This document shows, piece after piece, positions 6,438-61,718 of a stretch of 64,000 nucleotides of DNA (position 1 is its first letter; each line of letters starts with the position of its first letter). This DNA is from Dehalococcoidia bacterium (lineage in GTDB: Bacteria; Chloroflexota; Dehalococcoidia; Bin125), in contig OZ253504.1 of assembly GCA_965262235.1 (NCBI GenBank), positions 2,731,681-2,795,680 on the forward strand. The letters run 5' to 3'. A program made the translations under genes and the position numbers. Below the pieces are notes generated by a model. It searched no databases. It worked only from the letters and a program-made list of their open reading frames with translations, and was not told the DNA's origin.

Positions 6438-9400
6438 TCAGTTGGAGTCAGGCGTTTCAGGTGTGGTCACGACGACCATCTGGCGACTGGCGATCAGCGC
6501 TTCGTCCGGCGCGAGACCTTCAGGGAAGCGAGTGCCGAAGGGCCGGCTGATGAAGTCGGGCAGGTCCGCGGAAAGGAAGAGCGCCGTCCATACCCCGTCC
6601 AGCCGATGGTAGAACGCATCGATATCAAGGCTTCGGGCACAAGCTTCAAGGTCGCTCACAGTGCCGCCGGCGAACGTGACCTCGCTGAGCCCCTCATCTT
6701 TGAGTCCTTCCAGGCAGGGCGGTTTGCTCACTTGGATCACGTAGCTCTTGGTCCGGCTGCCATCCGCGGACCTGACCACGACGGTGATCGTCGTCTCTGA
6801 TTCCAGCGTCACCTGATGGCCGTTCTCGGGATCGCCGCCCGCGTCGGCCGGTTCGATCGTCACCGTGGCGGCCTCCTGGGTCGCCACAGCCGCGACGATC
6901 GTTGCCGCCAGATCGTAGGCACCGGAGGCCGCGTATTCGAAACGGTTCGACGAGAACTCTTCCAGCTCGAGTTCGTTCAAGCTGAGCGACGCGAGCTGCG
7001 CAATGATCGCGTCGGGCAGGTTGTAGGTGTAGACCTTGTCGTCCTGCTCATCCACCACGTACATGACATCGCCGTCCGACCAGATGCCGCGCGGACTGCC
7101 GTTCCCGGCCTTCAATAGGGAGCGGAACGTGAACTCCAGGTCTTCGTTGCGCGTCAGCGCTTCGCCGTCGACTTCGTATGCAAACAGCCGCTTGGCCCCG
7201 TCGTCGGAGACCCAGAGGGTGTCGCCGTCGGACCAGATGCCGCGCGGGCTGCGGTTGAGCTTGTCCAGCGCGTGCTCGATCAAGAGTTCGCCCGTTGCGA
7301 AGTTGTAGGTGAACAACGAGTCCTGGACGCTGTCGAGCACGTAGATCGTCTCGCCCTCGGACCAGATGCCCCGCGGGTCTCGATTGCGCTCGGCCAGTTC
7401 GACCTCTCGCGCTTCGTCCCGCTCCCCGCTCTCGAGGACGTAGGCGAAAAGCTGATCCTGGCGCTGTCCGCGACCCAGACGGTCTCGCCGTCCGACCAGA
7501 TGCCGTGGGAGAAGCGGTTGCGCCGGTCGAGTTCGAACTCGCGGTCCGGCTGACGCTCCCCGCTCAGCAGGTCGTAGGCGAACACCGAGTCGGCGCCGGA
7601 GGCGGCGTTTTCGAGGACCCACAAGATCTGACCGTCCGACCAGAGACCGGTCGGGATGTCGTTGTCGCGGTCGAGCGACTCGATGTCTCGGGTCACATTC
7701 CAATCGAAGTCGGCGTCTGACGGGATCGGGACCGGCGGTGGACCCCCCCCGCCGCCGCCGCCGCCGCCACCGCCGGATGGCGCCGATGAACTCGGCTTCA
7801 CCGCGTCTTCGACATTCTTGATTTGGACGGACAGGCGATCCGACCACTCCGATGTTTCGTCGAAATCCACCGCACGTAAGCGGAAGTAGTAGACCTTGCT
7901 GTCTGGCAGACCGCTGACGACGGCCCCGGTCCCGTCAAACGCCACTGTGATGCCGTCTCCGGGCAGGTCAATCCACTGGGTACTCTGGAAGTACTGGACC
8001 TCATAGGAGTCCGCGCCGGGGACATAGTCCCACTCCAGATCCACGACGCCTGGCGAGAGTACTTTCCCTCTGGGCCGAAGGTTCGGAACTTCCACGGTGT
8101 GTTCGAGTCGGTTCGAGAGCCGCCGTCCGTCACTGGTGCAGATGGCGCCAACCACCAGACATTTCCGATTATCGGCCAGAACCAGGGTTACGTCCCGAAG
8201 CCGGAAATTCGGGATGACATCAACCACCCACAGGTCCCTGCGGCGGTCCACCCGGCGGACACTCGGCACGCTGCCGCCCGTCACCGTCACCGCGTAGTCT
8301 CTGAAATCCTCGAAGCCGATAGTCAAGCGCTCGCTGAATTGGATCGTGGCACTGAATGGGATGCCGATATGAGTCTCCGGTACCTCTACAAATGCCCCCG
8401 TCAGAGCCTCCGCGCCGGGGTCCTCGATCTCGGTTGGGGAACCGCTGAAAATCCAGGGTCGGGCCTGCTTGATCGCCAGGATATTGTCGCTGGTGATCTT
8501 GAACTCGATCTCGATGGCGAATTGTTCGCCGTCCTCGATGCCGTACAGCTTCGCGAACCGCTCATGGATCGCGGCGAGGTTGCGGCGAAGCTGCCGCAGT
8601 TGATCGTCGGTCATGAGCAACTGGCCCGCTGGGACCTGATTGGAGAGCGCAACAACGGTGTACGTACCGTCCGGGTACAACAGGACTTCCTCCGGCACCG
8701 AGCGGGCGTCGGGGTTGGTGACCAGGTCCTCGCCGATCTGCGAGTTGACGTAGTAGGTCCCTTCCGTGCCGTAGGCGGGATCGATGCTGACTGCCACACC
8801 GTTGACTCGCTCGTCGGAGTAGTTGGGATGCACGAGCACGCCCATCGCCGCCGCCAGGTGGTCGACGCGGTAGAAGTCGCGTTCGATGAAGGCACGGAAG
8901 TTCCAGAGGCTGGCGTAGACCTGCTTGAGCGACTTGGAGATGCCGTCCTCCACGGTCTCCTCGGGATGCTGCGTATTGGAGTCGTACAGTCCGGCGCCGT
9001 TGAAGTTGGGCAGGTCCTCGTTGTTGGTGCTGGACCGGTAGCGCAGCGAGGTGCCCTCCGGGAACGTCGCGTGCATCGCGGTCAGCGCGGTATCAATCCA
9101 GTCCGGCGTCTCCGCCTTCTTGATCTTCTTGCGCAACTTCTTCAGTTCGTCCACCTGCGTGTCGTAGTCAGCCTGGAAATCGGAGTCGGCCAGCATCTCC
9201 TCGATCTCGTCGTAGAGGCCGTTGTGCTTCATGAACTCGTCGTAGAAGTAAAACGGGGCCGCAAACCCGTCGGGCACGGTCCCCGGCGGAAATCCCAGTG
9301 TCCCGATCACGGCCACGTTGGCCGCCTTGACGCCGAAGGAGTCCCAGCCGTCGAAGCCGATCTCGCTGAGAGCGGTGATCGAGGTAGCCGAGAGGTCTCG

Positions 9401-10720: not shown

Positions 10721-10968
10721 CCTGAAGGGCTCCAGGAGACGGCGATGGTTCCGGGGGGCTCGCTGGTCAGCGTCAGACCGCTGATGGCGCCATCGGCTTC
10801 CTGAGCCTGGGCAACCGCGAAGACGCCCAGGAAGGTCACAATGGACGGCAGCAGGACCGCCGGCGTCAGGACAGATAGCGGCCTGGACCTTCCCGGGCGC
10901 ACTCCACCTTCGGATGTTCGGTGGAGCCGGCCGGAGGCGCGGGCGGACCGGGTCGTGGACTGCGTCAT
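10711..10968 (-). pseudogene. Orphan N-terminus of a surface protein (signal peptide plus first strands of an FN3-like domain)
   Basis: Hydrophobic stretch ending AVAQA, then GAISGLTLTSEPPGTIAVSW, then a premature end. Confidence 0.5.
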
Positions 10969-13149: not shown

Positions 13150-13152
13150 CGC

Positions 13153-13910: not shown

Positions 13911-16900
13911 TCAATTCGCGACAGACACGACTCCGCTCGCGACTAGGGCCGCGCCAGGCGGCAATCCTTCAGCGAAGCGAGTGCGGAAGGGCCGGCTGAG
14001 GAACTCGGGCGCATCGAGGAAGAAGGCGGTCCAGACGCCGCCAGCATGATGGTAGAGCGCACTGACATCGAGGCTGCGGGCGCAGGCTTCGAGCTCGCTG
14101 ACGCTGCCGCCGACGAACGTGACCTCGCTCAGACGCTCGTTGGTGAGTCCGCCCAGGCACGGCGGCTTGCTCACGTCAACCAGATAGGTCGTGGTCCGGC
14201 TGCCGTCCTCGGATGTCACAGTGATGCTGATTGCCGTTTCGGCCTCCAGACTGACCTGATGTCCGTTTTCGGGATCGCCGTCGGCGTCAGTCGGAGTGAT
14301 CGCGACCATCGCTGACTCCTGTGTAGCAAGGGCCTCGGCGGTCGTAACGGTCGCACTGGAGTCGGCCATAGCTGTGTATGCGCGGCGGCCGGATGAGAAC
14401 TCCTCGATCTCGATGTCGCTCAAACTGAGCGAGGCCAGCTGCGCAATGATCGCGTCGGGGATGTTGTACGTGTAGAGCTTGTCGTCCTGCTCGTCCGCGA
14501 CATAGATGACATCGCCGTCCGACCAGATTCCACGCGCATCGCTGTTGCCTGCTTTGAGCAGCGGCCGGAAGCCGAACTCCAGGTCTTCGTTGCGCTTCAG
14601 CGTGTCGCCATCGAGTTCGTAGGCAAACAGCCGCTTGGCGCCGTCGTCGGAGACCCAGAGCGTGACGCCGTCAGACCAGATTCCGCGCGGGCTGCGGTTG
14701 AGCTTGTCGAGCGGGTGCTCGGCCAATAGCTCGCCAGATTCGAGGTCATAGACGAAGAGCGCGTCCTTGACGCTGTCGAGCACATACATCACCCCGCCAT
14801 CGGACCAGATGCCCCGCGGGTCGCGGTTGCGCTCGGCGAGTTCGATCTCCCGCGGTTCGTGCCGCTCTCCGCTCTCCAGGTCGTAAGCGAAGAGCCGGTC
14901 CTGACCGCTGTCGGCGACCCAGACGGTCTCGCCGTCCGACCAGATGCCGTGCGAGAAGCGGTTGCGCGGGTCAAGTTCGAACTCGCGGTCCGGCTGACGC
15001 TCGCCACTTTCCAGCTCATAGGCGAACACGGCGTCGGCGCCGGAGGCGGCGTTTTCGAGGACCCACAGGGTCTGACCGTCCGACCAGAGATCGGTCGGGA
15101 TGTCGTTGTCGCCGTCCAACGATTCGATATCCCGCGTCACGTTCCAGTCGAAGTCCTCGTCCGACGGGATCGGCACTGGAGGCGGTCCGCCGCCTCCACC
15201 ACCGCCGCCGCCACCGCCCGACCCCGACCGCCTGACCACGGAGGGGGCGATCGTCACATCAATGATCACGTCCACCGTGGCGTCCGCGGCAGGGTCGGGG
15301 ATGTAGTTGGCGCGAAAGCCGTCGTGCACGGACACGGTGACCATGTAGGAGCGAGGCTCGAGGACGGCTTTCGTCCGTAGCTGGCCGCTGGCCGGATCGA
15401 TGTCGAAGCGGTCGGCGTCTCTCCCGCCCAGCGAGTAGGTGACCACGTCACCCTCGTCGGCATCGGTCGCGGCCACGGGCGCGCCGATCGACAGGCCGGC
15501 TGCTGTGGCCTGGCCGATGACACGGGTGTACCGCGCCTCGGCGAACGTAGGCTCGGTATTCGTCATGGGTCTGGCTTCGTCGATATGCACCGTCAGCGCG
15601 GCATCGGCACTCTTGTTGCTGCCTCGGCGGTCGGTGTAGGACGCAGTGGCACGCAGATACTGGTCAACGTCGTCGGCGACCGTTGAATACCTGCTTGACG
15701 TTGCGCCCGGAATGTCTATCCAGCTCGACCGGTTTGAGGACCGCGCCCACTGCCAGGTGACGCTGCTCAGACGGACATCGTCATCATCATTGAGGACCGC
15801 GGCAAATGCCGTTTGTGGACTCACCCAGCCCCGCGGCGGGGTGATGCTGACCCGTCCCTCTTCCTCGACGTCCGTCACGGCGACCGTCACGGCGAGGGAC
15901 CCTGCCAGGCCGCCCTCATCGGTGGCGGTAACGGTCACCTGGAAGGTGGTGTTGCTGTCCTCGAAGCTGGGCGGTGTGCGGAAGTGCAGCCGGCCTTGAT
16001 CGGTCATCACGAAGCGGCTGTCATCCACCGACCAGGCGAGCGTGTCGCGCTCGGGATCGGCCCCGGAATAGGACGCGACGGCGGAGCTGTCGTTCTCTCT
16101 GTAGGAGGGAGCGGTATCGCCCGTGACCACGGGCTTCTCGTTGACGTTCGTCACGGTGACGGTCACGCGAATGCGGGCGTCGATCACAGTGTCAGGGTCG
16201 TCGTTCTGGTCCGCGGCGTCGCTGACGGAGACGGTGACGGAGTAGGACCGCTTGCCCTCAAAGTCCAGTTGCACATTTGCCGCCAGCCGCAACTGCCCAG
16301 AGTTCTCGTCGATCGTGAATGAAGCAGCGTCCGATCCGCTGAGCGTGTAGGTCAGGACATCGTTGTTGAAGTCGGTGGCTTCGATAGCGGCTCCGATGGC
16401 GGCGCCGGAGGCGGCATCTTCCGGCACTTCGCGCTGACCGTTCTCCGTGGCCGGGAACGAGGGAGCCGCATTGACTGGTGGCGGTTCGTCGACGGCGCGC
16501 GGCGATATGCCGTGCGCGCTCTTGTTCGGTCCTTCGCCGTCGGTGTACGAGGCCGTTGCTCGAATGTAGCTGCGGACGTCTTCTAACGTTGGCGTGTAAT
16601 CGGCAGACGTGGCGTTCGCAATGTTGACCCAATTGGTCCGGCCGTTGGGCGAGCGGGACCATTGCCAGGTGACGCCGGTAGCGTTGTCGGGATCGCTGAG
16701 TTCCGCGGTCACCGGGACCCGAGCTTTGATCGTCGCGGTAATCGTGGTCAGGGCTACCATCCCCGGCTCTTCCAGGTTTTCGATCGTCACCGTGACACCC
16801 TGGGTGTCGTCCACGGTGGTAGACATGTTGCCCGCGCCGTCCCGCCCGTCGTGAACCTCGACCGTCAACCTGTACTCGGGCTTCAACTCGAAGTCGAGGG

Positions 16901-25196: not shown

Positions 25197-28100
25197 GTGA
25201 CAGATCACATTCAACGCCTGGTCAAGTGGTCTGCGCTGGCATTGCTGCTGGCGGTGTCATGCTTCGGATGGTCGATTGGCGCTCAGCCGGCCCGCGCCGA
25301 CGGTGGCGATGAACCGTCGGATTCAATCCTGGTCCCGCGCAATTGGAGCCTGATCCCCCGCGGCATCCCAGCGGGCGGAGAGTTCCGGCTGCTCGTCGTC
25401 ACCAAGTTGATGCGTGACTCGAGCTCCACTGAGATCGCCGACTACGACGCGCACGTGCAAGCGGATCTGGCCGCGTCGAATGCTCACCCGGGCATCGCGC
25501 AGTACGCATCCCTCTTTCGCGTCGTGGGCAGCACCACGACGGTCGCCGCGCGCGATCATATCGAGGCTGGGCCGGAGCACGAACCCGGTGTAGCCATCTA
25601 CTGGCTCAATGGGGCACGAGTCAGCGAAAGCTATCGCGGCTTCTTCAGCGGCAAGTGGCAGTCATACGACGCGAGTTGGAACAACGGGCGGACGGTCCCC
25701 GGAGATCGGCTCTACGGCTTCTACATTGCGACGGGATCGACCAACGCCGGAGGCAGGTCGTTTGGCGAAGAGTTGGGAACGCGGCGACAGCACTTTGGGC
25801 GTGACTCAGTCGCGTACGGTGTGCTGCAAGCCGGCGGTGTCTTCGATTACTCCCTTGAAGCCGACACGGTCGCTCCCGAAGCGTCGCGGCCGTTCTACGC
25901 AATTTCTCCCGTCTTTCGAGTAATGGATGACGGTACCCCACATACGGTCTCGGTCACGATCACGTCCGACGCGGGCAGCGACAACGACTACGGTCGCGGC
26001 GACACGATTCGCGCCAAAGTCACCTTCAACGAAGCGGTCACCGTGAGTGGTCAGCCGATCCTCCAACTCCGGTTCGGCAGAGATGAAGACCACAAGGCGC
26101 CGTACGCCAGCGAGGTGGTCGATGCCGCCTACGTGGCATCGGCGAGCACGGCCACGGAGTTGGTGTTCGACTACACCGTGTCGGCAGATGAGACGGACGA
26201 CGATGGATTGTCGATCGGCCGCGGCGCGATCCGGCTCAATGGCGGTTCGATCACCAAACAGAACGCCTCGACCAAAGCCAACGTCTACAACCGGCTCCTG
26301 AAAGATCAGCCCGAGCATCGTGTCAATCAGGCGCCCTTCGCGAGGAGACCTCAGATACTGTCCAGGCCGCTGTCGAGCAGCGACGAATACGGGCTGGGCG
26401 AACTGATCCAATTCGTCATTCCATTCAGCGAGTCCGTCGAGGTGAACACTGCGCCGGGGCGGCCGCAACTGAACATTCAGATTGGCAGACTGAAGGTCAA
26501 GGCTGATTTCCTCTACACCAACGGCTCGAAGGTCATCTTTGGTCACGTGGTGGCTGACCGCCAGATCGATGTCAACGGCGTTCGCGTCAAGAAGAACGGG
26601 CTGAAGCTGAACGGCTCAACGATCCGCAGCGTCGAGACCGGCCGCGACGCCAGGTTCACGTTCGGCTGGATCGATTTCTCCGGGCACGGAGTCGACGCGG
26701 GTCTGACGCCCCCAGCTTCCTCGAACGCGCGTTTGGCTTCATTCTCGCTGAGCGGTGTCTCCTTGCGCCCCGCCTTTGACCCGGATGTCACCGAGTACAT
26801 GGGAACTGCCCCAAATGGCGTCTCCGAGACGACCTTGCGTTCGCTCGCCTATGACTCCGCTGCGAGCGTGACCTTCTCCCACGCCGATGCGGACAGCGAC
26901 GCCTCCGGGAGGCAGATCAGCCTGCCGGTCGGCGATACCACGATCACGCTGACCGTCGCCGCGTCCGACCAGAGGTCAACCAAGACGTACACCATTAAGG
27001 TCATGCGCAGCATGGCGGGCAACCTCGCGGCGGTGTCGATTGTTGCGGACGAGGACTCCGTGGTGGAGGGGACAGCGACGAGCTTCACGCTCACGCGCAG
27101 CGCACCGCTCGCCGGCGCGTTGACCGTCGCGCTCGACGTGTCGCAGACAGGCGTCGTCGTCGCCACCGATGGCACATACGCACCGCCGACCGAAATCACA
27201 TTCACGGCCGGCTCCGCCACCGCGACGCTGTCCGTCCGAACGCAGTCCGACACAACCGACGAACCGGATGGCACCATCAAGGCCATGCTGATGCCGAAGA
27301 TCCACTACAACCTCGGCGAAGCGGACTCGGCCCAGGTGACCGTCAGCGACGACGATGACACCCCGACGGCGACACTGCAGCTCAGTTCCGCTTCGATCGG
27401 CGAGAACGGCGGCGTGAGCACGGTCACGGCAACGCTCGATCGAGCCTCCAGCGAGGGGACCACGATCGCACTCTCGGCGACTCCCGTCGCACCGGCCGCT
27501 GCCGCCGATTTCAGCCTCAGTCCGAACGCGGAGCTGTCGATTCCCGCAGGCGAAACCACCAGCGTCGGAACGGTCACGATCACCGCGCAGGACAACGCAG
27601 TTGGGAACGCCAGCAAAACGGTGACGGTGTCCGCCAGGACGACCAATGCACACAGCCTGAATCCGCCCGACGCGCTGACCCTGACTATCACCGACGACGA
27701 GTCGTCGCCGACGGCGCCGATGCACCTGACCGCGACGCCTGGCGACGCACAAGTCACCCTGTCGTGGGATGCGCCCGCCGCCGCCGCCGATGTCACCCGT
27801 CATGAGTACCGCCACCACGAAGTCGGCAGCCAGTACGCGAACAGTTGGACAGAAATCCCGGACAGCGCGCCGGGCGAAACCAACGAAGATGGCGTCACGG
27901 TGAGCGGGCTCACGAATGCGGCGTCGTACAACTTCCAGGTGCGTGCCGTGAGCGACGCCGGCGTGAGCGAATCGTCCATGGACGCCAGTGCGTTCGTGGG
28001 AGCGGGACAGGGCATCTGTGATCGAACTGATCAGGTTCGCACGCGTCTCCTGTCGCTGCTCGGCAACGTGTCCGAGATCGAAGATGTGTCCGACTGCGCC

Positions 28101-33034: not shown

Positions 33035-36000
33035 CTAGTTAGCGTCGTTCGGGGTCGTACCCGGTCCCGGTCCAGGTTCACGCTTGGCGACCAGGCTTTC
33101 TGGGGCCGGCAGGCCGTTGGCGAATCGGTTGTAGAACAGCTGGTTGAGGAACGCTGGTGCGCCAAGGAAGAGTCCTGCCCAGCCTTCCTCGTCGTAGTGG
33201 TAGACCGCACTCACCCCGAGCCCTCTGGCGCAGGTGACCAGCTCGTCGACGCTGCCTCCGGTGTAGCTGACCAACGACAACCGCTCCCCGGTCAGTCCTG
33301 CGAGACAGCGGGCAAGCGCAACTCGGTAGACCCGCGTTCGGCTACCGTCCTCCGAGCGAACGGTGATTGTGACCTCGCCGCCATCCCCAACGCTGAGCTG
33401 ATGACCACTGTCCGGGGTGTCATCCACGTCCGCCGGCCGAATCGACACTGTCGCGCCGCTGTGTGTGGGCTTGGCCGTCACGGTCGTCTCGGTCAGGTCA
33501 TAGCCCACGAGCGCGCGATAGCCGATCCGCACGGGCGAGAACTCGCCGTACTCGATGCCGCTCAGCGTCAGCTCGGAGAGGCGGGCGTCGATCGCGTCGG
33601 GCATGTTGTAGGTGTAGACCCTGTCGTCCTGCTCATCGACGACGAAGATCACGCCACCGTCGGACCAGATGCCACGCGGATTGCCGTTGCCCGCCTTGAG
33701 CAGGGGTTTGAAGCCAAACTCCTCGCCCTCACGACGAGTCAGACTCTCGCCCTCCAAGCGGTAGGCGAAGAGGCGCTTGGCGCCGTCGTCCGAGACCCAC
33801 AGCGTGACGCCGTCGGACCAGATGCCGCGGGGACTGCGGTTGAGCTTGTCCAACGGGTAGCGGCTGAGTAGTTCACCGCTGCTCAGGAGGTAGCTGAAGA
33901 GCTGGTCCTGAACGCTGTCGAGCACGTATACCGTTTCCCCGTCCGACCAGACGCCGCGTGGGTCCCGATTGGCCTCGTGCAGTTCCAGCTCCCGCTCCTC
34001 CAGCCGCTCACCGCTCTCGAGGTTGTAGGCGAAGAGTCGGTCCTGCCCGCTGTCGGCAACCAGGACGGTCACGCCGTCGGACCAGAGACCGTGTGAGAAG
34101 CGGTTGCGCGCGTCGAGCGTCAACCCCTCCTCCGGCAGCCGCTCACCGCTCTCGATCTCGTAGGCGAAGATGGCGTCCGGACCGCTCTCGGCGTTCTCAA
34201 GCACCCAGAGTCCCGCGCCATCGGACCAAAGGCCTGTCGGAGTGTCGTTGTCTCGATCCAGCGCCTCAATGTCTCGGGTGACGTTCCACTCGAAGTCCTT
34301 CTCGGACGGGATCGGCACCGGAGGAGGACCGCCTCCGCCGCCCCCGCCCCCTCCACCAGATGCAGCACTGCTGGTAACGGATATGACTCGTTCCTTTGGA
34401 GGAACGATCAGCACTTCGGTCACGACGCTGATGGTGACCACGACGCTGCTCGACCGGCCGGTCAGGTCTCGTGCCGTGACGACCACGGTGTAGGTGTCCT
34501 TGGTCTCTTTGACCAACGGAGCGACCGTCTGTAGCTGACCTGATGCGGCGTTGATCATGAACGAGTCCTCGTCCGCGCCACTGAGCGTGTGCGTCACCTG
34601 GTCGCCGGCGTCATGGTCATCCGCGGCAACCGGATCGCCAACGTCGGTTCCTGCGGGCTTGTTCTCAAGCACCAGTCGAGTCGCGGCGCCGGGCGGGAAC
34701 ACCGGCGGCTCGGCCGCGTCGCTGACAACCACCGCGATCGCCCGCGACGCGCTGGCCCCCAACGAATCACTGGCAACGATCTTGAAGTTGTGGACGGAGC
34801 GTGTCTCGAAGTCCAGAGCGTCTCGGACTTGGAGCTGACCGGTGGATCCGTCAATTTGGAACCAATCGGAGTCCTCGCCGCTCAACGACCAGTAGATGCC
34901 GCTGCGGTGCTCAGGGTCGGTGGCGACAAACGGCGCACCCAGGATCGTTCCCGGCGCAGCGGTCTCGGCAACCGCGCGCTGCGCCACGGTCGTATCCGCA
35001 AACGCTGGAGGGTCGTTCGCCGGGCGATCGCCGAAGACCCAAGGCCGGGCCTGCTTGATTGCCAGGACGTCATCGCTGGTGAACTTAAACTCAATCTCCA
35101 TCGCGAACTCTTGATCGTCAGCGGGGTCGTACAGGGTCTCGAATTCGTCATGGATCACGGTCAGTTGCGGGACCAAGGCGTCGAGACGGTCTTCGTGCAT
35201 CAGGAGCACGCCAGGGTCCACCTGGTTAGAGGTGAACGCCACGATCGTCCAGCAACAACTCTTGGCCGTCAGGATCTCTTCCGCCACCGATTGGGCTTCG
35301 GGATTGGTCACAAGATCCTCGCCCAGCTGGGAGTTGATGTAGTACGCATCATCGAAACCGTACAACGGATCAAAGCTGACCGCGACGCCGTTGACCAGCT
35401 CGTTCTGGTAACTGGGATGGATCAGGATGCCCATCGCCGCCACCAGGTGGTCAATGCGATGAAAATCGCGCTCCACGAAGGCGCGGAAGTTCCACATGCT
35501 CGCGTAGACTTCCTTGAGCGACTTGGCCAGATCCTTTTCATCCTCGCTTGGCTTTTGGCTCTTGGAGTCGTACAGTCCCGCGCCGTTGAAGCCCGGCAGG
35601 TCCTCGGTGTTGGTGCTGGAGCGGTAGCGCCGGTTGATCCCCTCGGGAAACGACTGATTCATCTCGACCAAGGCTGCGACGATCCATTCAGGCGTCTCCG
35701 CATCCTCGATGTCCTTGCGCAACTTCTTCAGCTTCTTCGCCTGGACCGCGTAGTCGTTCTGAAACTCGGCATCAGCCAGCATCGTGCGAATGCGGGAATA
35801 GAAACCATTGTGCCGCATGAACTCGTCGTAGAAGTAGAAGGGGATGGCGAACCCGTCGGGCGCCGTGCCGCTGGGCAGACCGATCGAGCCCAACACGGCC
35901 ACGTTCGTCGCCTTGACTCCGAACGCTGTCCAGTCGTCGAACTCGATCTCGCTGAGCGGAGTGATCGCCGTCACCGCCAGGTCGCGCCGCGGCGTCTGCG

Positions 36001-41294: not shown

Positions 41295-44200
41295 GTGAAC
41301 GCCGAGTCGGCGCGCGGCGGCGGACCTGGCTGGGCCGGCTTCTGGCCGCAGCTCGCGCTGATCCTGCGCGGCGTTGCGGGCGCCGGGTGGGCGCGCGCAC
41401 GGGCGAGCTGGGCGCTGGCCCTGCTGGCCCTGCTGGCCCTGGCCGGGTTGGCGGCCGCCTGGGTGTTGCTCGCCGCGCCGGTAGCCGCTCAGACGCCCAA
41501 CGCCGATCTCAGCAGCCTCAGCGTCAATGGCACGCCGGTTCCCGACTTCGATGCGGACACCACGAGCTACACCGTCGGCGTCGCGCACAACGCCGCCAAT
41601 CTGATCACCGTCCTCGGCGTCGCCGCCGACAATAGCGCTTCTATCGCCTGCGAGGTCGACGAAGATATGAGCACCGACGGGTGCCAGATCGAGCTCGTAG
41701 CGGGCGGCGCGGACGATCTGATTCTGACCGTGACCAACGGCACTGCGACGGAGACATACACCGTCAGACTCAGCCGAGGCCGCGGCGGCGAAAAGCAGTG
41801 GAGACCCGAGCACGACATCTACGGCTTCGAGGACATCGGCCCTGGGCTCGGCATCGTGACGGACGGCGTCACGCTCTGGGCGGTGGATCCAGTGCCCATG
41901 AGTGGGAATGACAGGCTGGTTGCCTTCAACGTCGCGACCGGCGCGCGCGACGCGGCAAAAGACTTCCTGGTTCGCAACACCACGACGGTGTCCAACAACA
42001 ATCCCTTGACCGCGACGTTTGACGGCAAGTTCATATGGGTATCGAGACTAAAGAGCGGAGACGGAGCTAACAATAAATCGCGTGTGTATCAGTACGACTT
42101 GAACGGCGGTCAATGGCAGCCAATAGCGCAAGATCGACCGCTCGTGGCCATGAGCGAAACCGGGAAGCGAAGCAGAGGCATCTGGACCGACGGCGAGATC
42201 ATGTGGGTCGTCGACAAGGGCAACCAAGATAATCCGATGCCCGGAACCAAGTTCGGCAAGATCCTTGCCTACACCATCGACGGTGACACGGCTCTGGCAT
42301 CGCAGAACTTCGGATCGCTCGCCGATGCGAACGACGCTCCCCGAGGCATCTGGTCCGACGGCGTGACCATGTGGGTCGCCGACAGCGACGACAAGAAACT
42401 CTATGCCTATGTCTTGGCCACGAAGGCGCGAGATTCAGGCAAAGACATCGATCTTCGCTTGAGCGGCAATTCGAAAGTCTTTGGCCCGTACGGCATTACC
42501 TCAGACGGCCAGATCATCTGGGTCATGGGCGAGACCGGCGTCATCCACGCCTTCGACCTGCCCAACTCCGGCAACGCCAATGTGCGCACGATCGAGCTCG
42601 ACGGCAGCAGCGTCGAGGGATTCGATTCGAGCATGCTCAGCCAGACCTTCGGCTTCGACAACGACGCCCGTCCACAAATGCTGACGCTGTTCACGCAGCA
42701 GCACTACGCCACCGTGGCGATCAACAACGCTGCGATCGATTCGGGCTTGCTCGGGACGTACGACCATGAGATCGATCTGTCCTCGGCGAGCGCCGTCCTG
42801 AATGTCCGGCTGACTGCATCGAGCGGCAACACCACCAAGGTCTACACCTGGAGCTTCGGGCGCAAGCCTGCCCAGACCACCGTTGCCACCGTGGTCCCGG
42901 CCGGAGATGCGTTGGCGTTGGCGGTGACCTGGACGCAGCCCAACAGCGGGACTTCCGCCGTCACCGCCTACGACGTTCGCCACATCGCAAGCGACGCGTC
43001 GGACCAGGATGTTGAAGCGAACTGGACGGTGCAGCAGAACGCCTGGCAGACCGGCGGCGACGCTCTGACCTACACGATCGCTTCCGGTCTCACAAACAAT
43101 CAGGAGTACCGCGTGCAGGTGCGCGCGCGCAACCAATTCGGCGACGGACCCTGGCAGTCCCCGGAAGACTCCGCGACGGGCACGCCGGTGTTTGCTTCGA
43201 TCGATGTCACCGGTCTGGAAGTGGCGGGCCGCTCGGTCCCCGAATTCGCTGCCACGGACCTGACCTACACCGTCGGCGTCTCGGGGGAGGACAGCAACAG
43301 CACAGTCAATCTCGTCGCCATCGGGGACTCCAGCGGCGCCACCCTGAGCTGCAGCACCGACATCGACAGCGATGCCGACAACGGTTGCTCGGTCGCGATC
43401 GCGAAGGGTGGAACGGCCACGGTGACGCTGACGGTGTCGGCCGGCGGTGATTCGGATGCCTACAGCGTCACGATCAACCGGGGACACGACGAAACGTTCA
43501 AGTGGAAGGCCAGCGAGGACATCTACGGATTCGCCGGCACCGATCCTGGAGACCGATTCGGCCGGGGCATCACCTCCGACGGGACGACCATGTGGGCCGT
43601 CGATAGCGCGAGCGGCGTCAATAGGGACAATAGGGTCCTGGCCTTCCTGTTGCCCAAGGACCCGGCCAACTACGAGCGCACGGATGACCTGGACATCCCG
43701 ATCGCAACCCTGAGGACCCACATAGCGTCCACCGGGATCACAAGCTTCGGCGACAGCGTCCTGGTGGTTCGCTCGCCGCGAGAGGCCAATCAAACCGGGG
43801 CCAGAGTGTACATCTACCAGCGCATGGGCGGCAGTTGGCAGTCGACCACCACACTGGACGCGATGAACGGCCTGAACAGGGACATCCAGGGCATCTGGTC
43901 CGACGGCGAGACGCTGTGGGTGGCGGACGGCGGCAGCACCGCGCGGATCCTCGCGTATTCCATTGCTGACGATCGCACGGACTCCAGCAAAGACTTCAAC
44001 ACACTCGCCGCCGCCGAGAACGAGAGTCCCAGGGGCATCTGGTCGGACGGTGAGACGATGTGGGTGGCCGACTCCGCTGAGAAGAAGCTGTACGCCTACG
44101 ACATGACGTCCAAGGCCAGAGTCGCGGGCAAGGAATTCTCCAAGGCGAATCTGATGGCCCGAGGCACCACCGCTGGCACTGCGATCGACCCCTGGGGCAT

Positions 44201-59200: not shown

Positions 59201-61718
59201 CGGGCTACAGCCGTCCGACTTCCAGCGGGTCGACACTGACGATGACGTCAATGTCGAAGTCTGGCGCTATCGGGCGACCGCGACGGCGACGATCGCGATT
59301 GCGGACGAAACCGAAGAAGAGGAAGACGAGACGTTCACGATTTCGATGGCCGAGGTCACCGACGGCGACTCGCCGACGGACTCGGAGATCACGCTGGCCG
59401 GCCAGCTATCACAGTCGGTGACCATCAATGCGAACGATGTGCACGAGGTGACCCGTGTGGCGGTGGACCCGAGCGATACCCTTGCCGATGTCACGGTCGA
59501 GATCGCCAATCCGAGTAGCAGCGAAGTAACCGTCTTCCTGCGCTGGAAGCAACAGTCGGAGCCGGAATGGACCGATCTGGACGAGATGGACCGTCAAACA
59601 ACAGCCGGCACGCCTGTGACGTACGCGGTGACAGGCCTGGAGCGCGCTAAGCGATACGTGGTTGAGGCGTCACTGAATGATCTGTTCCCCCTCGACCGAA
59701 CTACAGAGGCGGAGTTCACTACTCTCGGCCTGCTTCCGGCCGTCCAAAAACTTGAGATCGAGGATCCGGAGCAGACGGGAGCGCAGGTCAAGGTATTCCT
59801 CGCCAATACTGACCCGATGGAGATGTATACCGTGCGCCTGCAGTATCAGGTCGAAGGCGCGCTAACGTGGACCAGGGCGGAAGATCAAGATGCGCCGGCC
59901 GGCTCGTCTGATGTGACATTCGACCTCACGGGGCTGCGTTCCGGTACGCACTATTTGGTAGAAGCGACGCTCGAAGATAACTTCGGCGAAGGGCGCAAGC
60001 AGTCTAACTCGTTCGACACGGAACCGCCACGGGTCACCGAGATTGGCATCGCGACGAACGGCGGTGGCGGAAATGAACTGAAGATCGAGCAGACCACGGC
60101 GACCGTCAAAGTGACGGTCAGCGCCCCCAATGGCGAAGAAGTCAATCTGCGCTCGATGATTCGCGGTGGAGAGTGGGTGCAAGAGGATGGAATGATCGCT
60201 GAATCGGGGGCGTCCTATGTCAATGAGACGATCGAGGGTTTGACGCCCGGCGCTACCTATGAGGTGCAAGCGTCCTACGACAACACGTTCGCGCAAGCGG
60301 AGGCGGTGCAGTCAGTGAGCTTCGTCACCGCCACGGACACGCAGCCGGGTCGCCTGGTGCTCGCTCGCTCGGGCACCGGAGGCGGCGGCGGAGGCGGCGG
60401 TGGTGGTGGCGGCGGGCCGCCGGCTGCGCCGGTGCCGTCGGTGGTGGAATTCGAATGGAACGTGATGCGAGACATCGGGTCGCTCGGCGAGGAAAATGAC
60501 TCACCGACCGGGTTGTGGTCGGATGGCGAGACGATGTGGGTGCTGGAGAACTCGGAGAGCGGCAACGACAAGGTGTTCGCCTACGCCCTGGCGAGCGGCG
60601 ACCGCCGCGAACGCCGTGAAATCGAGCTCGACCGCCGCAACCGGTTCGCGCACGGGCTCTGGTCGGACGGCGAGACCATGTATGTGGCCGATAGCGGGCA
60701 GGACCGGATCTTCGCCTATCAGCTCAGCGATGGCATGCGAGCAGAGGAACGCGAGGTCGAGCTGGCCGAGTCCAACCGCGACCCGCGCGGCATCTGGTCG
60801 GATGGTGACACCCTCTATGTACTCGATAGTGTCAAGGACGCCCTGTTCATCTATGACCTGGAGACAGGGGAGCTGGTCGGCGAACGTGCGTTGGACAAGC
60901 TGAACGGCAGTCCCCGCGGTCTGTGGTCGGACGGCGTCACGTTGTGGGTCTCGGACGACGGGTCGAAACGCGTCTTCGCCTATCAGCTTCAGGACGAGGT
61001 CCTGCAGCGGATCGAGCCGCAGGAGTTCACCTTCCAGCCGCTGCTGAAGGCGGGCAACAGCGATCCGCGCGGGATCTGGTCCGACGGTGATGTGATCTTC
61101 GTCGCCGATGCGACTGATGACCGCGTCTACAGCTACAACATGCCGGATGCGATCGATGCGAGCCTGGCATCCTTGGACCTGAGCGGTGTCACGATCGACG
61201 CCTTCTCGCCAGGTCAGACCGAGTACGCCGGGGTCCTGTCGGCAGGGCTGCGAGAGACCACGGTCGTGGCAACCCCCTCGCAGAGTGGGGCGCAGTACAC
61301 GATCGCCCCGGACGACGCCGATGCTGAAAAAGATGGCCACCAGGTGGCCGTCATCGCCGGCAACGAGGTTGTCGTGACAGTGCAGTCGGCCGACGGCAGC
61401 CACACACAGCAGTACTCGGTGCGACTGGGCGACTGTCTGACCGGTTTGGGCGAGACGGGCTTGATCAATGTGCGCTATGGCGGAGGCAGCGTTGATCAGT
61501 TGCTCGCGTGCGCCCAACAGGGATCGGTCGAGGCTATGTACCACTACAGCACCGAGGGTTGGGTCGCGTATTTCCTGGATGGCCCAGAGTTCATCAATCA
61601 GCTGTTCCGCGACAGGTTCGCCAGCGGATTGCCGGCCGACACCGCGTTAGTTGCCAAACGTGAGCCGCCGGTCGCGACCGTTGCTTCGTCAGTGCCGACC
61701 TCGGCAGCAGGAAATTAA
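41295..61718 (+). CDS. Giant surface protein (6807 aa): GIWSDG propellers, cadherin-like, FN3, Calx-beta arrays, Spondin_N, C-terminal cassette
   Basis: Uninterrupted 20.4-kb ORF, long signal peptide ending PVAA, modular repeats. Confidence 0.92.
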   Translation: MNAESARGGGPGWAGFWPQLALILRGVAGAGWARARASWALALLALLALAGLAAAWVLLAAPVAAQTPNADLSSLSVNGTPVPDFDADTTSYTVGVAHNAANLITVLGVAADNSASIACEVDEDMSTDGCQIELVAGGADDLILTVTNGTATETYTVRLSRGRGGEKQWRPEHDIYGFEDIGPGLGIVTDGVTLWAVDPVPMSGNDRLVAFNVATGARDAAKDFLVRNTTTVSNNNPLTATFDGKFIWVSRLKSGDGANNKSRVYQYDLNGGQWQPIAQDRPLVAMSETGKRSRGIWTDGEIMWVVDKGNQDNPMPGTKFGKILAYTIDGDTALASQNFGSLADANDAPRGIWSDGVTMWVADSDDKKLYAYVLATKARDSGKDIDLRLSGNSKVFGPYGITSDGQIIWVMGETGVIHAFDLPNSGNANVRTIELDGSSVEGFDSSMLSQTFGFDNDARPQMLTLFTQQHYATVAINNAAIDSGLLGTYDHEIDLSSASAVLNVRLTASSGNTTKVYTWSFGRKPAQTTVATVVPAGDALALAVTWTQPNSGTSAVTAYDVRHIASDASDQDVEANWTVQQNAWQTGGDALTYTIASGLTNNQEYRVQVRARNQFGDGPWQSPEDSATGTPVFASIDVTGLEVAGRSVPEFAATDLTYTVGVSGEDSNSTVNLVAIGDSSGATLSCSTDIDSDADNGCSVAIAKGGTATVTLTVSAGGDSDAYSVTINRGHDETFKWKASEDIYGFAGTDPGDRFGRGITSDGTTMWAVDSASGVNRDNRVLAFLLPKDPANYERTDDLDIPIATLRTHIASTGITSFGDSVLVVRSPREANQTGARVYIYQRMGGSWQSTTTLDAMNGLNRDIQGIWSDGETLWVADGGSTARILAYSIADDRTDSSKDFNTLAAAENESPRGIWSDGETMWVADSAEKKLYAYDMTSKARVAGKEFSKANLMARGTTAGTAIDPWGIWSDGETMWIADSSENIYSFTMPVSTNADLRRVQVNGTDVENFNPDSAAQSFSVANELTALTVTPITRQIKATAAFTSTDSDLNTDGHQIDLSTSAAAVNITVTAQNSTTTKTYALTFGRLPALATIANVTPGGSSLTITWTAPDRGTSAITSYDARYIKNSASRKDVDGNWTVQTSIWPSGPLSATISGLENDIEYLVQLRAVNSSGAGPWLPFSRIDESETGTPAAVATPLSSITVNSATVPNFDQSETSYTFGLADGVATATVVGTAASSSATVTCSSDTDGDPSNGCTVAVGADTGVDLTLTSTIGTNSTAYTVTLDRGATGTFGWDADADRYLKNQDVTVGYRGIWSDGTTMWVAYSNSASSELQALVLASGVHDPSNDIPIGTMIHTIDGSDFRAQTPVGIMGIAGMGNRLWVADINTGVGGTTQKVLAFELNDQDEWVVSPGWARKGTKEFLGNTMRGIWTNGELFWAASDDTDGIDAVDNYDGNLLAFVLSGEFSGSKPDSLVTSERFYPPRPAGNLSMRGVWADGETVWVADQTDGKVYAYNMVSKAHVESKDFPRAQLTIKSETPSPWGIWSDGETMWVIHTGTAVVRGYEMPVSVGTGLRYLRSQDKNVNGFRTTLTTQSVGVPHDSAMPTITVGPRNRFASVAISSTDADENDDGHQIDLSSGTATLNFSVTAQDGTTTQAYVITIGQAPDEVSTPGVTPGAGSLTVTWTVPDEGGSTITGYDLRHANSREGDDLKYSGPWTVIDDVWVTDGGDLTATITDLTVGTPYYVQIRAKNSFGTGAWLPFSRIDESGEGTPLMVGSDDTTLSVLSFTPGTMTPPFSPMQQSYTVNVSKTTEQVTVVAMPTNSAAEHLIRQNNMTITDEDTGTPGFQLKLTNGATRTVVVQVTAGNGATRDYVIGIVRPALSSENRLSSVTITLGTLDPSFVSGTKTYTVAITDACASRITVVAVAQNEFATLRFTSGAGDTPVLTDADTVLPGFQIDVPNASTIFRIYVVAENGDETHYQFTVTKVGVCRAELPQVSIATSTMGSPDEGDSIAFTVTRDEGSEDALAVLVNVTESGGPMLASGDKGSQTVTIAANATAATHTITTLSDTTLEDHTTVTVAISTAADTYRIDSAAASDSIEVLDDDVPSSVNTSLGVSPSSTIEGSTVTVTATFYYTEKLLPHGDVGPIRLHTGAAGDSATSPADYNAFDRTIVLQPGEFALVNGLYTATVTETIDIVKDEEAEGDHDFKVQLSSVGTPNTTFNLPSPITITITESSEARLNALTLDPGVFDNTTPFHPGTLIYRVAVPTIASQITVAATPTNTFATWVVLDGGDTELSDADSVLDGFQVAVPFGDSTITIKATSQDATATKLYVITLTRVAPDVPFVEDAALSDISVNGTSLRGFSPDRSAYVYETGASAVTVARTPRSHLADVTSETADSDDGTDGHQVAVAGEISLYEVSLESEDNNATMSYQVLFGSGVTTDYGWSVEKDIHALADGQVTDAGISGDASSVYVVDDVHDDVRVHRIENGAYEVSFALATDNEDPRGICIAGDMIYVSDYADGKVYAYHELQKHHLADEDIDLAGASPQPMGIWCDSEWLWVNQASTGTNREMRAYRLSDGSEDASKRITINDATYFWSDGEVIWVNSSQGVSPATVTFPAYNLSGGALNSDRHISLSAEAVAAGLGEVAGVWANRQTLWAASPMYHRFLSFNVPEVPDVSIAAPSGTPTEGEALEFVISRTGSTTEAVTINLAVSEDDAGDMVAAGDEGSKTLVLGAGVTSATYSLSTVNDTDWEEQSTVTVRLRSGDGYTVSMTAGSASKQVLDNDFPVTEVVLSIKENPVDEGMSVKATVTMTTSGDEGPHAHSPTVTLQTEDDTATAPGDYAALASTEVSFPTSEFKREALNDLPAEEDFRFVASRTLTIQTVNDSAPENSESFRVVMAKDQTSSQVDKLTLMGTPAEVMIAASDFPAVSIRGPTGTFTEGDTLEFTVSRSAAHSTELVVNLKVSRGAAIIHPEDTGSKTANIAADEREGTFTVRTTADTDYEEHTMIMVEVLDGDGYTINSSSQRVEIDVQDDDIAPATAWLTVSSKEVSEGQSVMVTLTVETKADLVPHGGSGEIRLRAVSDTATSGDDFEALDEKITFAANSLIATGVPNTDDNRYRGSVTRTILIIDDTRSENAEQFAVKQEPVSGGSDPTASGLDLVSPTSINVEIRRSDFPQVSILSTAPTGPIVEGAAANFSITRSADTAGSALMVNVNVSESGAMVETGEGPRIASFDAGATTFDLTINTDDDDTWEAGSTITVELEDGDMYSVSASNGSATRAVTDDDFPAANAVLMVDPTSVDEEDGSVTATLTITTAGDQQPNGPAGAFTIATSSPTSVSSALPGTDYTTVNSTLVFALADFAQTDVSDTSSPPDLRWEASKEVTITTLDDELDEGDEVFNVGMSANSTHATPASPNVTLEAPTSIPVTINASDKPEISLTSGTGDIAEGDAITFTISRGTATTSELVVNVTVAETSTLIADTQEGAKTVTITANQPSATLTIQTETDTAWDEHGTVTVALAAGDRYSLSATANSVTRDVKDNDLPASTARFEYSGTGVEGTSETLYLVIDTDGDQQPHKDAGGFIVATSAGTETSETDFTAIDDVKVVAALGDFTRVAADETDAEDWRWRAKKSVAALAITDDEVEEEAEAFTISVSRSTEGDDIGDPNVTLPSDLTVTIPKNDTRLESEDAELSALTITSVTLSPSFSRDRTSYTGTAAGSVAQVTVTPTKSDDKASFKYLDVDDMPLTDADNAAGFQVDLDQGPNTIKIKVTAEDDRESMTYTVTVTREPLVSISVAAGDVIEGGDVVFTVTRGHVTDSALLVRIMVSEDGDVVERIDPNGEYREILADAATIQLTVSTVDDDPFEAHSTVTGTVVAATGYAPHGTEASASRQVQDNDFPASELSITLLNGEVEEGDEVSLTVRMLTDGGERPRTTTPSGEFRLVAASGTAISDIDFMAFSASREFGSNSFTHEVIDPDDGVEDFRYRAEHVWTIRTTQDVVPEGDETFTVTAEDVSLHPNVRIASGSRQVTILANDSADTTLASLSVTDGSVDIGYMSPDFNAATTEYTAGVGYDIMQITILASAAHDDAVIVYQNASDQTLTDVDSEADGHQVNLTIVGVNVIKVVVTAENESDTGTYTLRVTRTPQDESLTPAASDPSTSYPTTVEYDITFTGRWNQLVTPGGVPGSAHFSTLIGAVHNDVISFLQSGMAATAAIESMAEEGTIGALRTLVQTAIDADPNTALSVLSRPVSGRATGSATFSGIELTSEFPRVTLTTMIAPSHDWFTGVSGLLLLDSGGHWLQSHQLDLFPWDAGTEEGGDFALTPDTDTDPQGVIHSLRGIGKFTTHRIASIRFELQSVKTTRVLNENTAANMNIGAAIKSPVVFSAESGSVTYAISGADAASFDFNTNSGQLRTKTDEDYDFETKDRYEVVVTATKGDESVGVDVTIDIANLEEPGTLTVTPTTARVDVLLTATLVDGDEPENVAWKWQLSADGSSGWTDISGATSATYTPVMADEDDYLGVIVTYDDNISDGKTIITTLGPVFESNLESDDNSLSALGLSGLTLAPGFSSAGTTYTAAAVYTTSITTITATPTHDRATVELLDDEDEAIVDADSDVDGLQMAIAIGSNTIKATVTAQNGAVNTYTITLTRAKPTVSLSISDDAVTESSTDGIGFTISRSDSAADALAVNLSVSESGAMLGSMQLGARTVTVPGGSATVMGTIVVAGDDAWEAHSTVTVTIESKNSYEIKSDAKIGTKVVADDDFPAATVAMEVTTPVDEGAAVTAMVTLTTDADQEPHRASGDILVSTQTGTAGSSDFTALTADTGKVEFSVADNSLERVDLDTNDLDEIYDWRWQGEREVSIQTTVDTVNEPAETFQVAMAKVTTGMSPTARNIQVDSDTTPLTVTINESNRSTEASLSALGISPGTLSPGFVSSTKSYSADVTLTDLEITVSPTLADTNASLEYLDENGDQLDDSKGGMGGFQIALALGDNVFQIKVTAQDGMATDTYSVTVTRAYPELTVSVDSESVPEGDSAMVTITRNGPVPETTAFRLEVSQNGSVLDDGSVGTQMLEIAAGQELLAVTIPTVNDEVWEEHGEEHSAVLVTVTVDAPTTISGPASLAIEVRDDDFPQATAALSVSPNPVSEDESVEATVTITTAGDEQPHEGSGTILLSTAVGTAMAADFTALNATTGALSVAVEDFDGNRIDLDDNPNDNVHDWRWRATSEPITIAITDDTDKESDETFTVSMAKVTDGDSPTDTAITLASPASVDVTISQSDRSSVASLATTDGLTLSAGSLSPTYSTGTLSYTAEVPFGAEQVTITAVRNNEFATIKFLDSDDMELADVGIGTAERQVNLGVDEAKLIKIEVTAEDEITKRIYQVEITRQQPILSISVADGDVSEGGDVVFTVTRNAAAAETTAFSFVVSQADDAGDVVDASQLRMVEDVIQADADTFELTVPTVDDDTWEKNGVVHAELAPSTNYTTQGALEVTKEVVDDDFPSAVAVITASPNPVDEGRGVVVTVTVTTAREEEPHEDAGSIQLTTADGPAQPPGNATATAGQDYVALAGADGLLTFERGDFEPDDIPGVGMFYQASKQVTIDTMNDDESEREETFSVIMARVTIGDSQTDSSITLGSGTPASLREIVQFIASDLDENPALSRVELSAGTISPDFVSTTLVYTVSVDFGNPQVTLTPVPGSTGTTFEYLDADDMTLDDGNDGTDSIEVALPVDAPVVVKIKTTSEDGMHHETYTLTLTRQFPVAGITAADAEVTEGQPVSFTVTLNGHVEDAAGQAVVVNISQGSGEDVLTGSTRTVTVRVAEGDTTVDFTVDTADDHLWEEHPTVTATLAARAGYSVDSAAGAASKQVLDNDFPEAQAELTVTPNQADEAAAVTAKVTITTSRDEAPREIGGQILVSTGHADDTAMAPDDYTALTATTGLLTFGEVGLQPSDFQRVDTDDDVNVEVWRYRATATATIAIADETEEEEDETFTISMAEVTDGDSPTDSEITLAGQLSQSVTINANDVHEVTRVAVDPSDTLADVTVEIANPSSSEVTVFLRWKQQSEPEWTDLDEMDRQTTAGTPVTYAVTGLERAKRYVVEASLNDLFPLDRTTEAEFTTLGLLPAVQKLEIEDPEQTGAQVKVFLANTDPMEMYTVRLQYQVEGALTWTRAEDQDAPAGSSDVTFDLTGLRSGTHYLVEATLEDNFGEGRKQSNSFDTEPPRVTEIGIATNGGGGNELKIEQTTATVKVTVSAPNGEEVNLRSMIRGGEWVQEDGMIAESGASYVNETIEGLTPGATYEVQASYDNTFAQAEAVQSVSFVTATDTQPGRLVLARSGTGGGGGGGGGGGGGPPAAPVPSVVEFEWNVMRDIGSLGEENDSPTGLWSDGETMWVLENSESGNDKVFAYALASGDRRERREIELDRRNRFAHGLWSDGETMYVADSGQDRIFAYQLSDGMRAEEREVELAESNRDPRGIWSDGDTLYVLDSVKDALFIYDLETGELVGERALDKLNGSPRGLWSDGVTLWVSDDGSKRVFAYQLQDEVLQRIEPQEFTFQPLLKAGNSDPRGIWSDGDVIFVADATDDRVYSYNMPDAIDASLASLDLSGVTIDAFSPGQTEYAGVLSAGLRETTVVATPSQSGAQYTIAPDDADAEKDGHQVAVIAGNEVVVTVQSADGSHTQQYSVRLGDCLTGLGETGLINVRYGGGSVDQLLACAQQGSVEAMYHYSTEGWVAYFLDGPEFINQLFRDRFASGLPADTALVAKREPPVATVASSVPTSAAGN
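53835..54420 (+). other. Spondin_N domain within the 6807-aa protein
   Basis: YDITFTGRW...AHFSTLIGAVH...SMAEEG...TMIAPSHDWFTG...LFPWDAGTE. Confidence 0.85.

Follow-up and report, generated by a model that had tools for sequence, protein, structure and literature searches.

The use of one common C-terminal module by diverse exoproteins is a known concept, represented by the SLH, CWB2 and dockerin modules and by the C-terminal domain of the type IX secretion system (T9SS CTD). SLH (PF00395), CWB2 (PF04122), SPOR (PF05036), LysM and GW are small terminal folded modules, often present in two to four tandem copies and common to many unrelated exported proteins of one organism, which bind peptidoglycan or wall polymers of monoderm bacteria non-covalently; the elements of SPOR are ordered beta-alpha-beta-beta-alpha-beta. 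The T9SS CTD of the Bacteroidota, of about 80-100 amino acids, is strictly C-terminal on many diverse, often giant Sec-exported proteins; it is an all-beta sandwich, present in a single copy, which is cleaved and needs an outer-membrane translocon. In the dockerin-cohesin system of cellulosomes one small terminal module, found on many enzymes and binders, docks to a common scaffold. Here we describe a C-terminal tail of about 430 amino acids (the cassette), encoded four times in a 64-kb stretch of DNA (the window; 61-66% G+C) on contig OZ253504.1 of a Dehalococcoidia bacterium. Its terminal domain has none of the defining features of SLH, CWB2, dockerin or the T9SS CTD.

The window contains five giant open reading frames (ORFs), four of which (encoding proteins A-D) end in a common series. 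This consists of a poly-Gly run (10-13 Gly), PP(V/A)PxPS, F(D/E)WNV(T/M)RDI, five blades of about 45 amino acids that each contain (N)RxxxG(I/L)WSDG, a sandwich, a domain with two cysteines (the end domain) and an Asn-ended extension. Apart from the Asn-ended extension, the series had been described in an earlier note on this DNA, and the translations confirm all of its elements in the four stretches. The genes and their cassettes are organised as follows.

6438..10660, minus strand: Gene A; signal peptide (MSLTTALIACSV...AHA/Q), PPDK_N-like passenger and cassette copy A, with a frameshift near 7461
7742..7774, minus strand: poly-Gly hinge of copy A, 11 Gly, then PPPVPIPS
7020..7711, minus strand: five-bladed propeller of copy A, interrupted by the loss of 1 nt at about 7461-7462
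6726..7019, minus strand: PF12733 cadherin-like beta-sandwich of copy A (Pfam)
6438..6725, minus strand: two-Cys end domain of copy A (6474-6725), Asn-ended extension and stop codon
13911..23396, minus strand: Gene B; signal peptide, nine Cadherin domains, other Ig-like domains and cassette copy B; the likely start is MSPTRPRSG at about 23303
15186..15218, minus strand: poly-Gly hinge of copy B, then PPPVPIPS
14463..15155, minus strand: five-bladed beta-propeller of copy B (AlphaFold2 (AF2) model residues about 30-241, predicted local distance difference test (pLDDT) about 90)
14169..14462, minus strand: PF12733 sandwich of copy B (Pfam and AF2 model)
13911..14168, minus strand: two-Cys end domain of copy B (13926-14168; AF2 pLDDT 95), extension ...VSVAN and stop codon
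33035..37666, minus strand: Gene C; signal peptide, fn3, PPDK_N-like passenger (paralogue of that in A), two Cadherin domains and cassette copy C
34328..34357, minus strand: poly-Gly hinge of copy C
33605..34297, minus strand: propeller of copy C
33311..33604, minus strand: PF12733 sandwich of copy C (Pfam)
33035..33316, minus strand: two-Cys end domain of copy C (33071-33316), extension ...PNDAN and stop codon
41295..61718, plus strand: Gene D; ORF of 6807 amino acids with an approximate start; signal peptide, 14 PF12733 domains, fn3, Calx-beta, Spond_N and cassette copy D
60378..60416, plus strand: poly-Gly hinge of copy D, 13 Gly, then PPAAPVPS
60447..61139, plus strand: propeller of copy D
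61140..61430, plus strand: PF12733 sandwich of copy D (Pfam)
61425..61718, plus strand: two-Cys end domain of copy D (61425-61670), extension ...SAAGN and stop codon

All four regions represent one modular C-terminal tail, which giant Sec-exported proteins carry in old paralogous copies. Pairwise protein identity between the copies is 60-70% over about 430 amino acids, while the DNA is only 59-77% identical, which identifies them as old paralogues and rules out an assembly artefact or a recent duplication as their origin. The similarity reported in the earlier note is well beyond chance, with homologues down to E = 1e-217 and PF12733 scoring 29.8-46.2 bits in all four copies, against a Pfam gathering cut-off of 24.2 bits. 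The Gly codons within the poly-Gly runs are mixed, and poly-Gly is therefore kept at the protein level.

The domain content of the passengers agrees with that given in the earlier note (PPDK_N in A and C, the nine Cadherin domains in B, and the PF12733, fn3, Calx-beta and Spond_N domains in D), but they are not four unrelated kinds. The passengers of A and C, both with a PPDK_N domain, are paralogues (56% identity over 757 amino acids), which leaves three kinds among A-D. PPDK_N is a phosphoenolpyruvate-utilising, ATP-grasp-type domain, and it is odd that passengers exported by means of a Sec signal peptide (7790-10660 and 34373-37666, both minus strand) contain such a domain of ATP-dependent type. 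The Sec-type signal peptides themselves were substantiated by a Kyte-Doolittle scan of A-D, which gave a single N-terminal signal-peptide-like hydrophobic segment in each protein, followed by an AxA-type site, and no further hydrophobic segment, none being present in the cassette. Motif scans and profile hidden Markov model searches of the cassette were likewise empty for LPXTG, SLH and RTX, so that it has neither a transmembrane helix nor any of these features, as had been suggested.

Copy A has a 1-nt deletion in blade 2 at about 7461-7462 on the minus strand (7455-7470, GACAGCG-CCAGGAT, compared with GGC in the other copies), which splits Gene A into the out-of-frame overlapping ORFs 7280-11188 and 6438-7847; positions 1-85 of the propeller profile are matched in one frame and 84-231 in the next. 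Gene A is either a pseudogene or affected by a sequence error at about 7461. The N-terminal region of protein D contains two extra, divergent propellers of the cassette type (41793-42548 and 43347-44102, plus strand), which score 83-85 bits each compared with 464 bits for the terminal propeller. The fifth giant exported protein (25197-32723, plus strand) has LRR, fn3, PF12733, SWM_repeat, Cadherin and Calx-beta domains; it is without the tail and has Calx-beta at its end.

An AF2 model of the whole tail, based on a 103-sequence alignment (pLDDT 87, predicted template modelling score (pTM) 0.75), comprises a propeller at residues of about 30-241, an all-beta domain at 250-339 and an alpha/beta domain at 343-418. 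The model and the fold matches indicate a five-bladed propeller, perhaps of an NHL-like kind. Pfam matches to propeller families were all sub-threshold and generic (Lactonase, SGL and DUF5128), and the only significant profile match among PDB sequences was the designed propeller Pizza6 (E 1.5e-6), which derives from NHL-type repeats. The top matches in a Foldseek search against the PDB were the glutaminyl cyclases 3mbr, 2iwa, 3nol and 2faw (target-normalised TM-score 0.65-0.70 and 13-17% identity, with E between 1e-9 and 4e-8 over about 240 aligned columns); second in rank was an archaeal S-layer module, 1l0q, made up of a YVTN-propeller and PKD (TM-score 0.33-0.35). The plant/bacterial-type glutaminyl cyclase family, PF05096, had no Pfam match to the tails at E<=1. 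A tachylectin-2-like lectin (five blades of about 47 amino acids) was considered and rejected, being absent from the best 50 PDB fold matches and without a Pfam match. The blades also score above the gathering cut-off, with up to 41 bits, for PF22729 (NCH3, NACHT C-terminal helical domain 3), an assignment that is precomputed on most homologues. Since the matched stretch is made up of beta-propeller blades in the AF2 model and no NACHT domain is present, the assignment is likely spurious and the annotation misleading. The motif NRxPRGIWSDG recurs in every blade. Mean pairwise identity is 69% for the propeller, 53% for the sandwich and 47% for the end domain. All 78 of 78 non-redundant tails have a Pro-rich hinge and a poly-Gly run, which is 4-23 residues long.

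The tail is widespread and was previously unannotated. Hundreds of close homologues were found, nearly all of them unnamed, the named ones being hypothetical proteins of Chloroflexi metagenome-assembled genomes (MAGs). An exhaustive search with a 413-position whole-cassette profile gave 6342 cluster representatives at E<=1e-3 (1569 at E<=1e-30), and many of these proteins have a length of 2000-6000 amino acids. The architecture was determined for the best 145 new representatives of this search: 94 have the end domain and 51 are without it but have the propeller-sandwich unit, many of these with several internal units (up to 12-27 matched stretches). When one genome was scanned for each species, 472 encoding stretches were found; the best 80, from which the related loci were drawn (1.46 Mb of DNA, examined together with the window), are nearly all in Dehalococcoidia MAGs with chromosomes of 3-3.8 Mb. 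The tail family is greatly expanded in these MAGs, and at least 22 tail genes, often arrayed, are present on a single 3.65-Mb chromosome (OZ253456). Tail genes were also seen in bins assigned to other phyla, namely L035 (CBDCVL010000012.1, labelled Vicinamibacterales) and P0082 (labelled Gammaproteobacteria). L035 also has a small upstream gene (see below) of the Dehalococcoidia type, with 60% identity, and mis-binning or lateral transfer is therefore likely.

The end domain, of about 80 amino acids, was modelled alone by AF2 with a pLDDT of 95 and a pTM of 0.83 and has the predicted element order beta-alpha-beta-beta-alpha-beta. Both cysteines are invariant in 39 of 39 diverse copies, which suggests that they form an extracytoplasmic disulfide. 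The view taken in the earlier note, that this domain is unlike any characterised family, is borne out by sequence and fold searches. Pfam gave no match to the 39 copies at E<=10, the end-domain profile had none among PDB sequences, Foldseek against the PDB gave no significant match (best E 1.3), a fold search against viral folds was negative and NCBIfam, sorting-signal models included, gave no match to the tails. The similarity of the region to ribosomal protein bS6 (E 0.029) is not significant and at most consistent with a ferredoxin-like element order.

The end domain is carried by 105 of 120 homologues, in one to four tandem copies per protein; among the 94 carrier representatives 19 have one copy, 74 have two and one has three. 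Its position is strictly C-terminal, the restriction which the earlier note had proposed to look for. It is terminal in all 94 carriers, with the last copy 0-15 residues from the C-terminus in 90 of them (maximum 111), and lies within 25 residues of the stop codon in 93 of 93 stop-to-stop ORFs from the related loci and the window. The propeller and sandwich are directly upstream in all 87 full-length ORFs. Matches of 74-144 amino acids that might represent stand-alone end-domain proteins result from truncated gene calls, their start lying within a preceding copy. Of 88 non-redundant tails 48 (55%) end in Asn, as do all four copies in the window (6438-6473, 13911-13925, 33035-33070 and 61671-61718), compared with 8 (2%) of 365 control ORFs in the same DNA. 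This Asn is preceded by 0-17 residues that are free in length and sequence, and may be a processing or recognition signal.

Two other terminal modules, neither with a Pfam match, were found behind a cassette-type propeller and sandwich in place of the end domain. They occur at L050:2219-11851, L057:2624-11686, L058:6968-11674, L062:2-11698 and L009:1555-9297 (reverse complement) and at L052:1145-11314 and L055:4643-11311.

Alternative module 1: two to four tandem repeats of about 50 amino acids ('RIAARRLxDGRVEFALQ...RWLxSSPL')
Alternative module 2: a beta-rich domain of about 100 amino acids ('...VPGLRTLxTL...VTEPxTW')

The cassette is thus composed of a conserved hinge-propeller-sandwich base and an exchangeable, repeatable terminal module. 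It does not behave as the single unit of about 430 amino acids that the earlier note had envisaged, as the propeller and sandwich also occur in internal arrays and before these two other modules.

The end domain is predicted to have the same order of elements as SPOR, but neither SLH, CWB2, LysM, SPOR nor dockerin had a Pfam match to the tails (E<=1) or to the 39 end-domain copies (E<=10), and there is no sequence match or significant PDB fold match to the SLH, CWB2, SPOR, LysM and GW group. Unlike the members of that group, the end domain is always found behind a propeller and an Ig-like sandwich. For the T9SS CTD (TIGR04183/PF18962) there was no NCBIfam or Pfam match to the tail or the end domain, which differs in being predicted as alpha/beta, in being repeatable and in occurring in Chloroflexota. 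Compared with dockerin, the end domain has no Ca-binding repeat, no identified cohesin-like partner and another fold. Sortase and exosortase/archaeosortase/rhombosortase signals combine a short motif with a C-terminal transmembrane helix and a basic tail; the tail described here contains no hydrophobic 19-mer and, in its last 120 residues, no motif of the LPXTG, PEP-CTERM, PGF-CTERM or GlyGly-CTERM kind. The RTX giant adhesins of the type I secretion system (T1SS) have RTX repeats, a C-terminal T1SS signal and no Sec signal, whereas A-D have Sec-like N-terminal signals and neither their tails nor their passengers match HemolysinCabind/RTX in Pfam. The Methanosarcina mazei S-layer protein 1l0q is similar in that a propeller is followed by an Ig-like domain in a surface protein of a non-murein prokaryote; it has seven blades instead of five and the low TM-score noted above, and nothing in it corresponds to the two-Cys end domain. 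Glutaminyl cyclases such as 3mbr and 2iwa share the five blades and are the best structural match of the propeller, at low sequence identity and without a Pfam match. In the literature searched no description of the tail module was found, only general statements on cadherin/fn3 enrichment and on the absence of peptidoglycan genes from sponge SAR202.

We favour the interpretation that the tail is a shared surface-retention or docking module, which is plausible if still somewhat short of probable. After Sec export, the tail would tether a variable N-terminal passenger (cadherin arrays, Ig/fn3/Calx arrays or PPDK_N-like enzymes) to the envelope of the producing cell. The end domain or domains, possibly together with the propeller, would bind a repeated envelope component non-covalently, for example an S-layer protein or glycan, with tandem copies supplying avidity, and the Gly/Pro hinge would act as a flexible tether from which the passenger projects outward. 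Several features argue for such a role. A-D are Sec-exported and have no other retention feature; the end domain is strictly terminal, repeatable and probably disulfide-bearing, like multivalent wall-binding modules, and can be swapped for other terminal modules, as would be expected of interchangeable anchors; within one genome, dozens of passengers of different kinds, some of them enzyme-like, carry this tail; the flexible hinge is universal; and the archaeal S-layer propeller and PKD unit ranks second in the fold search. The docking or anchoring unit proposed in the earlier note is therefore in keeping with the terminal position, the diverse Sec-exported passengers and the one to four tandem copies, but is not matched by any partner gene nearby. 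Its other suggestion, an export signal, is unlikely because Sec signals are already present, the Chloroflexota are generally held to be without an outer membrane, and the end domain is repeatable.

The lineage also bears on the type of anchor. The SLH, CWB2, SPOR, LysM and GW modules bind peptidoglycan or wall polymers, while genes for peptidoglycan synthesis are reportedly missing from sponge SAR202 genomes (PMC6306507). In such a lineage anchors based on peptidoglycan would have no target, so that sortase/LPXTG, LysM and SLH-type modules could not serve and an anchor of another type would be needed. The organism of the window is probably itself a sponge symbiont, since its closest relatives (with tails up to 76% identical) include sponge symbionts; MPNM01, the source of two loci, is the Chloroflexi bin bin125, obtained from the sponge Aplysina aerophoba (PMC5649159).

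A number of points weigh against a role in retention. The case for it is wholly architectural, and neither sponge symbiosis nor the lack of peptidoglycan is established for the organism of the window. Conservation is higher in the propeller than in the end domain (mean pairwise identity of 69% and 47%, respectively), and propellers are also found in internal arrays; the main function may thus belong to the propeller and be something other than anchoring. Giant adhesins of the T1SS type bind their ligand through the conserved C-terminal part, and polarity alone is therefore no proof of an anchor. In addition, the exhaustive search used the whole-cassette profile and could have missed architectures in which the end domain occurs without a propeller.

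An alternative view is that the tail is a ligand-binding end. A common glycan or protein of the host, in the sponge matrix or on the cell surface, would be bound by the propeller, perhaps assisted by the end domains. The N-terminal arrays would then be spacers or secondary binders and the tail would attach to the host, not to the bacterium. The propeller is the most conserved part and has the same motif in each blade, as in multivalent lectin propellers, and the unit is also found in internal tandem arrays; furthermore, sponge symbionts are enriched in cadherin and fn3 proteins, which are thought to mediate host attachment (PMC8163846). However, the best fold matches include no lectin, with glutaminyl cyclases and generic propellers on top, and host binding leaves unaccounted for both the presence of the same tail on enzyme-like PPDK_N passengers and the strictly terminal, swappable end domain, nor would anything else in A-D keep the proteins on the cell. 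On balance we regard it as rather unlikely. The resemblance to the five-bladed glutaminyl cyclases might instead mean that the propeller is an enzyme and that the tail adds a catalytic activity common to these exoproteins. The fold matches (3mbr, 2iwa, 3nol and 2faw; TM-score 0.65-0.70) are offset by an identity of just 13-17%, by the lack of a PF05096 match at E<=1, by conserved residues that recur from blade to blade, a pattern more typical of repeats with a structural or binding role than of one active site, and by internal tandem arrays that would be unusual for an enzyme; a catalytic role is very improbable.

The terminal features can also be read as a sorting signal of a novel type, with the end domain and extension recognised by a dedicated processing or attachment enzyme, possibly via the C-terminal Asn, leading to covalent attachment or maturation. 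The strictly C-terminal position, the excess of C-terminal Asn over control ORFs (48/88 versus 8/365, and 4/4 in the window) and the universal poly-Gly stretch, which could be a cleavage site, are consistent with this. On the other hand, the end domain is folded and can be present in two to four copies, unlike known sorting signals, 45% of tails are without the terminal Asn, no transmembrane helix or basic tail is present and the tail genes have no recurrent neighbour of a sortase-like, peptidase or ligase type, which together make such a signal doubtful to a high degree. Within this scheme, it is a long shot that the end domain and Asn-ended extension form the recognition element of a sortase-independent, possibly covalent envelope-attachment pathway with poly-Gly as a regulated release site. 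If that were true, peptidoglycan-less Chloroflexota living as sponge symbionts would have a new system of protein sorting, by which giant host-mimicking proteins are displayed by the dozen. A further view is that the tails self-associate or join an S-layer lattice, so that the family would build a protein coat, or a matrix between cells, with the passengers embedded in it. Dozens of paralogues per genome have the tail in common, the archaeal S-layer propeller and PKD module ranks second in the fold search and the whole-tail pTM of 0.75 may mean a fixed arrangement of domains; yet the TM-score to 1l0q is only 0.33-0.35, and S-layer proteins that form lattices are not typically so large or so diverse in their passengers, so that a coat or matrix has a slender chance of being correct.

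No sortase, secretion-system or obvious partner gene was found within the window, and no sortase-like, peptidase or ligase gene is recurrent near tail genes in the related loci. As no partner, sorting enzyme or secretion gene is nearby, the 'surface-display system' of the earlier note stays an inference. Two regulatory genes lie between Genes C and D.

38358-39734, plus strand: HisKA_3-type multi-transmembrane membrane histidine kinase
39731-40408, plus strand: LuxR-type response regulator

Homologues of the kinase and of the regulator adjoin tail genes in eight and seven loci, respectively (four to six genomes, window included). This recurrence makes the pair a possible regulator of the tail genes. 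In at least seven loci a small protein is encoded directly upstream of the giant gene; it has a membrane anchor at its N-terminus and a conserved C-terminal domain of about 150 amino acids, joined by an acidic linker of low complexity.

L005:11719-12609, L022:3084-4010, L024:3045-4253, L031:3651-4250, L037:3474-4187, L020:12596-13828 and others: small upstream protein

The small gene and the giant gene overlap at the TGA stop of the former and the GTG start of the latter, an indication that they are translationally coupled. The small protein has no Pfam match, is not encoded in the window and is a candidate partner of the tail proteins. Homologues of GPP34 (Golgi phosphoprotein 3) were observed near tail genes at L022:864-2363 (minus strand), L040:18068-20164 (minus strand), L041:1999-3498 and L043:1932-4028; the GPP34 family was reportedly linked to sponge symbiosis in a 2025 paper (PMC11706023). 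An MMPL transporter gene directly follows the genes with four end-domain copies in L041-L043. Within the window, two adjacent short ORFs with RCC1 repeats (3507-3980 and 4119-4730, minus strand) look like one gene split by a frameshift.

The tail bears on how proteins are retained at the surface of Chloroflexota that have neither peptidoglycan nor an outer membrane, and on the physical interaction of abundant sponge symbionts (SAR202/Dehalococcoidia) with the host matrix. Current annotation, as hypothetical protein or by the misleading 'NCH3' match, hides the module. The end domain, being small and confidently modelled, offers a handle for studying a very large set of giant exoproteins. Should the tail prove to be an anchor, it would represent a surface-display principle of a new kind and add a new domain family for annotation; should it be a host-binding head, it would be the main adhesin of the symbiont.

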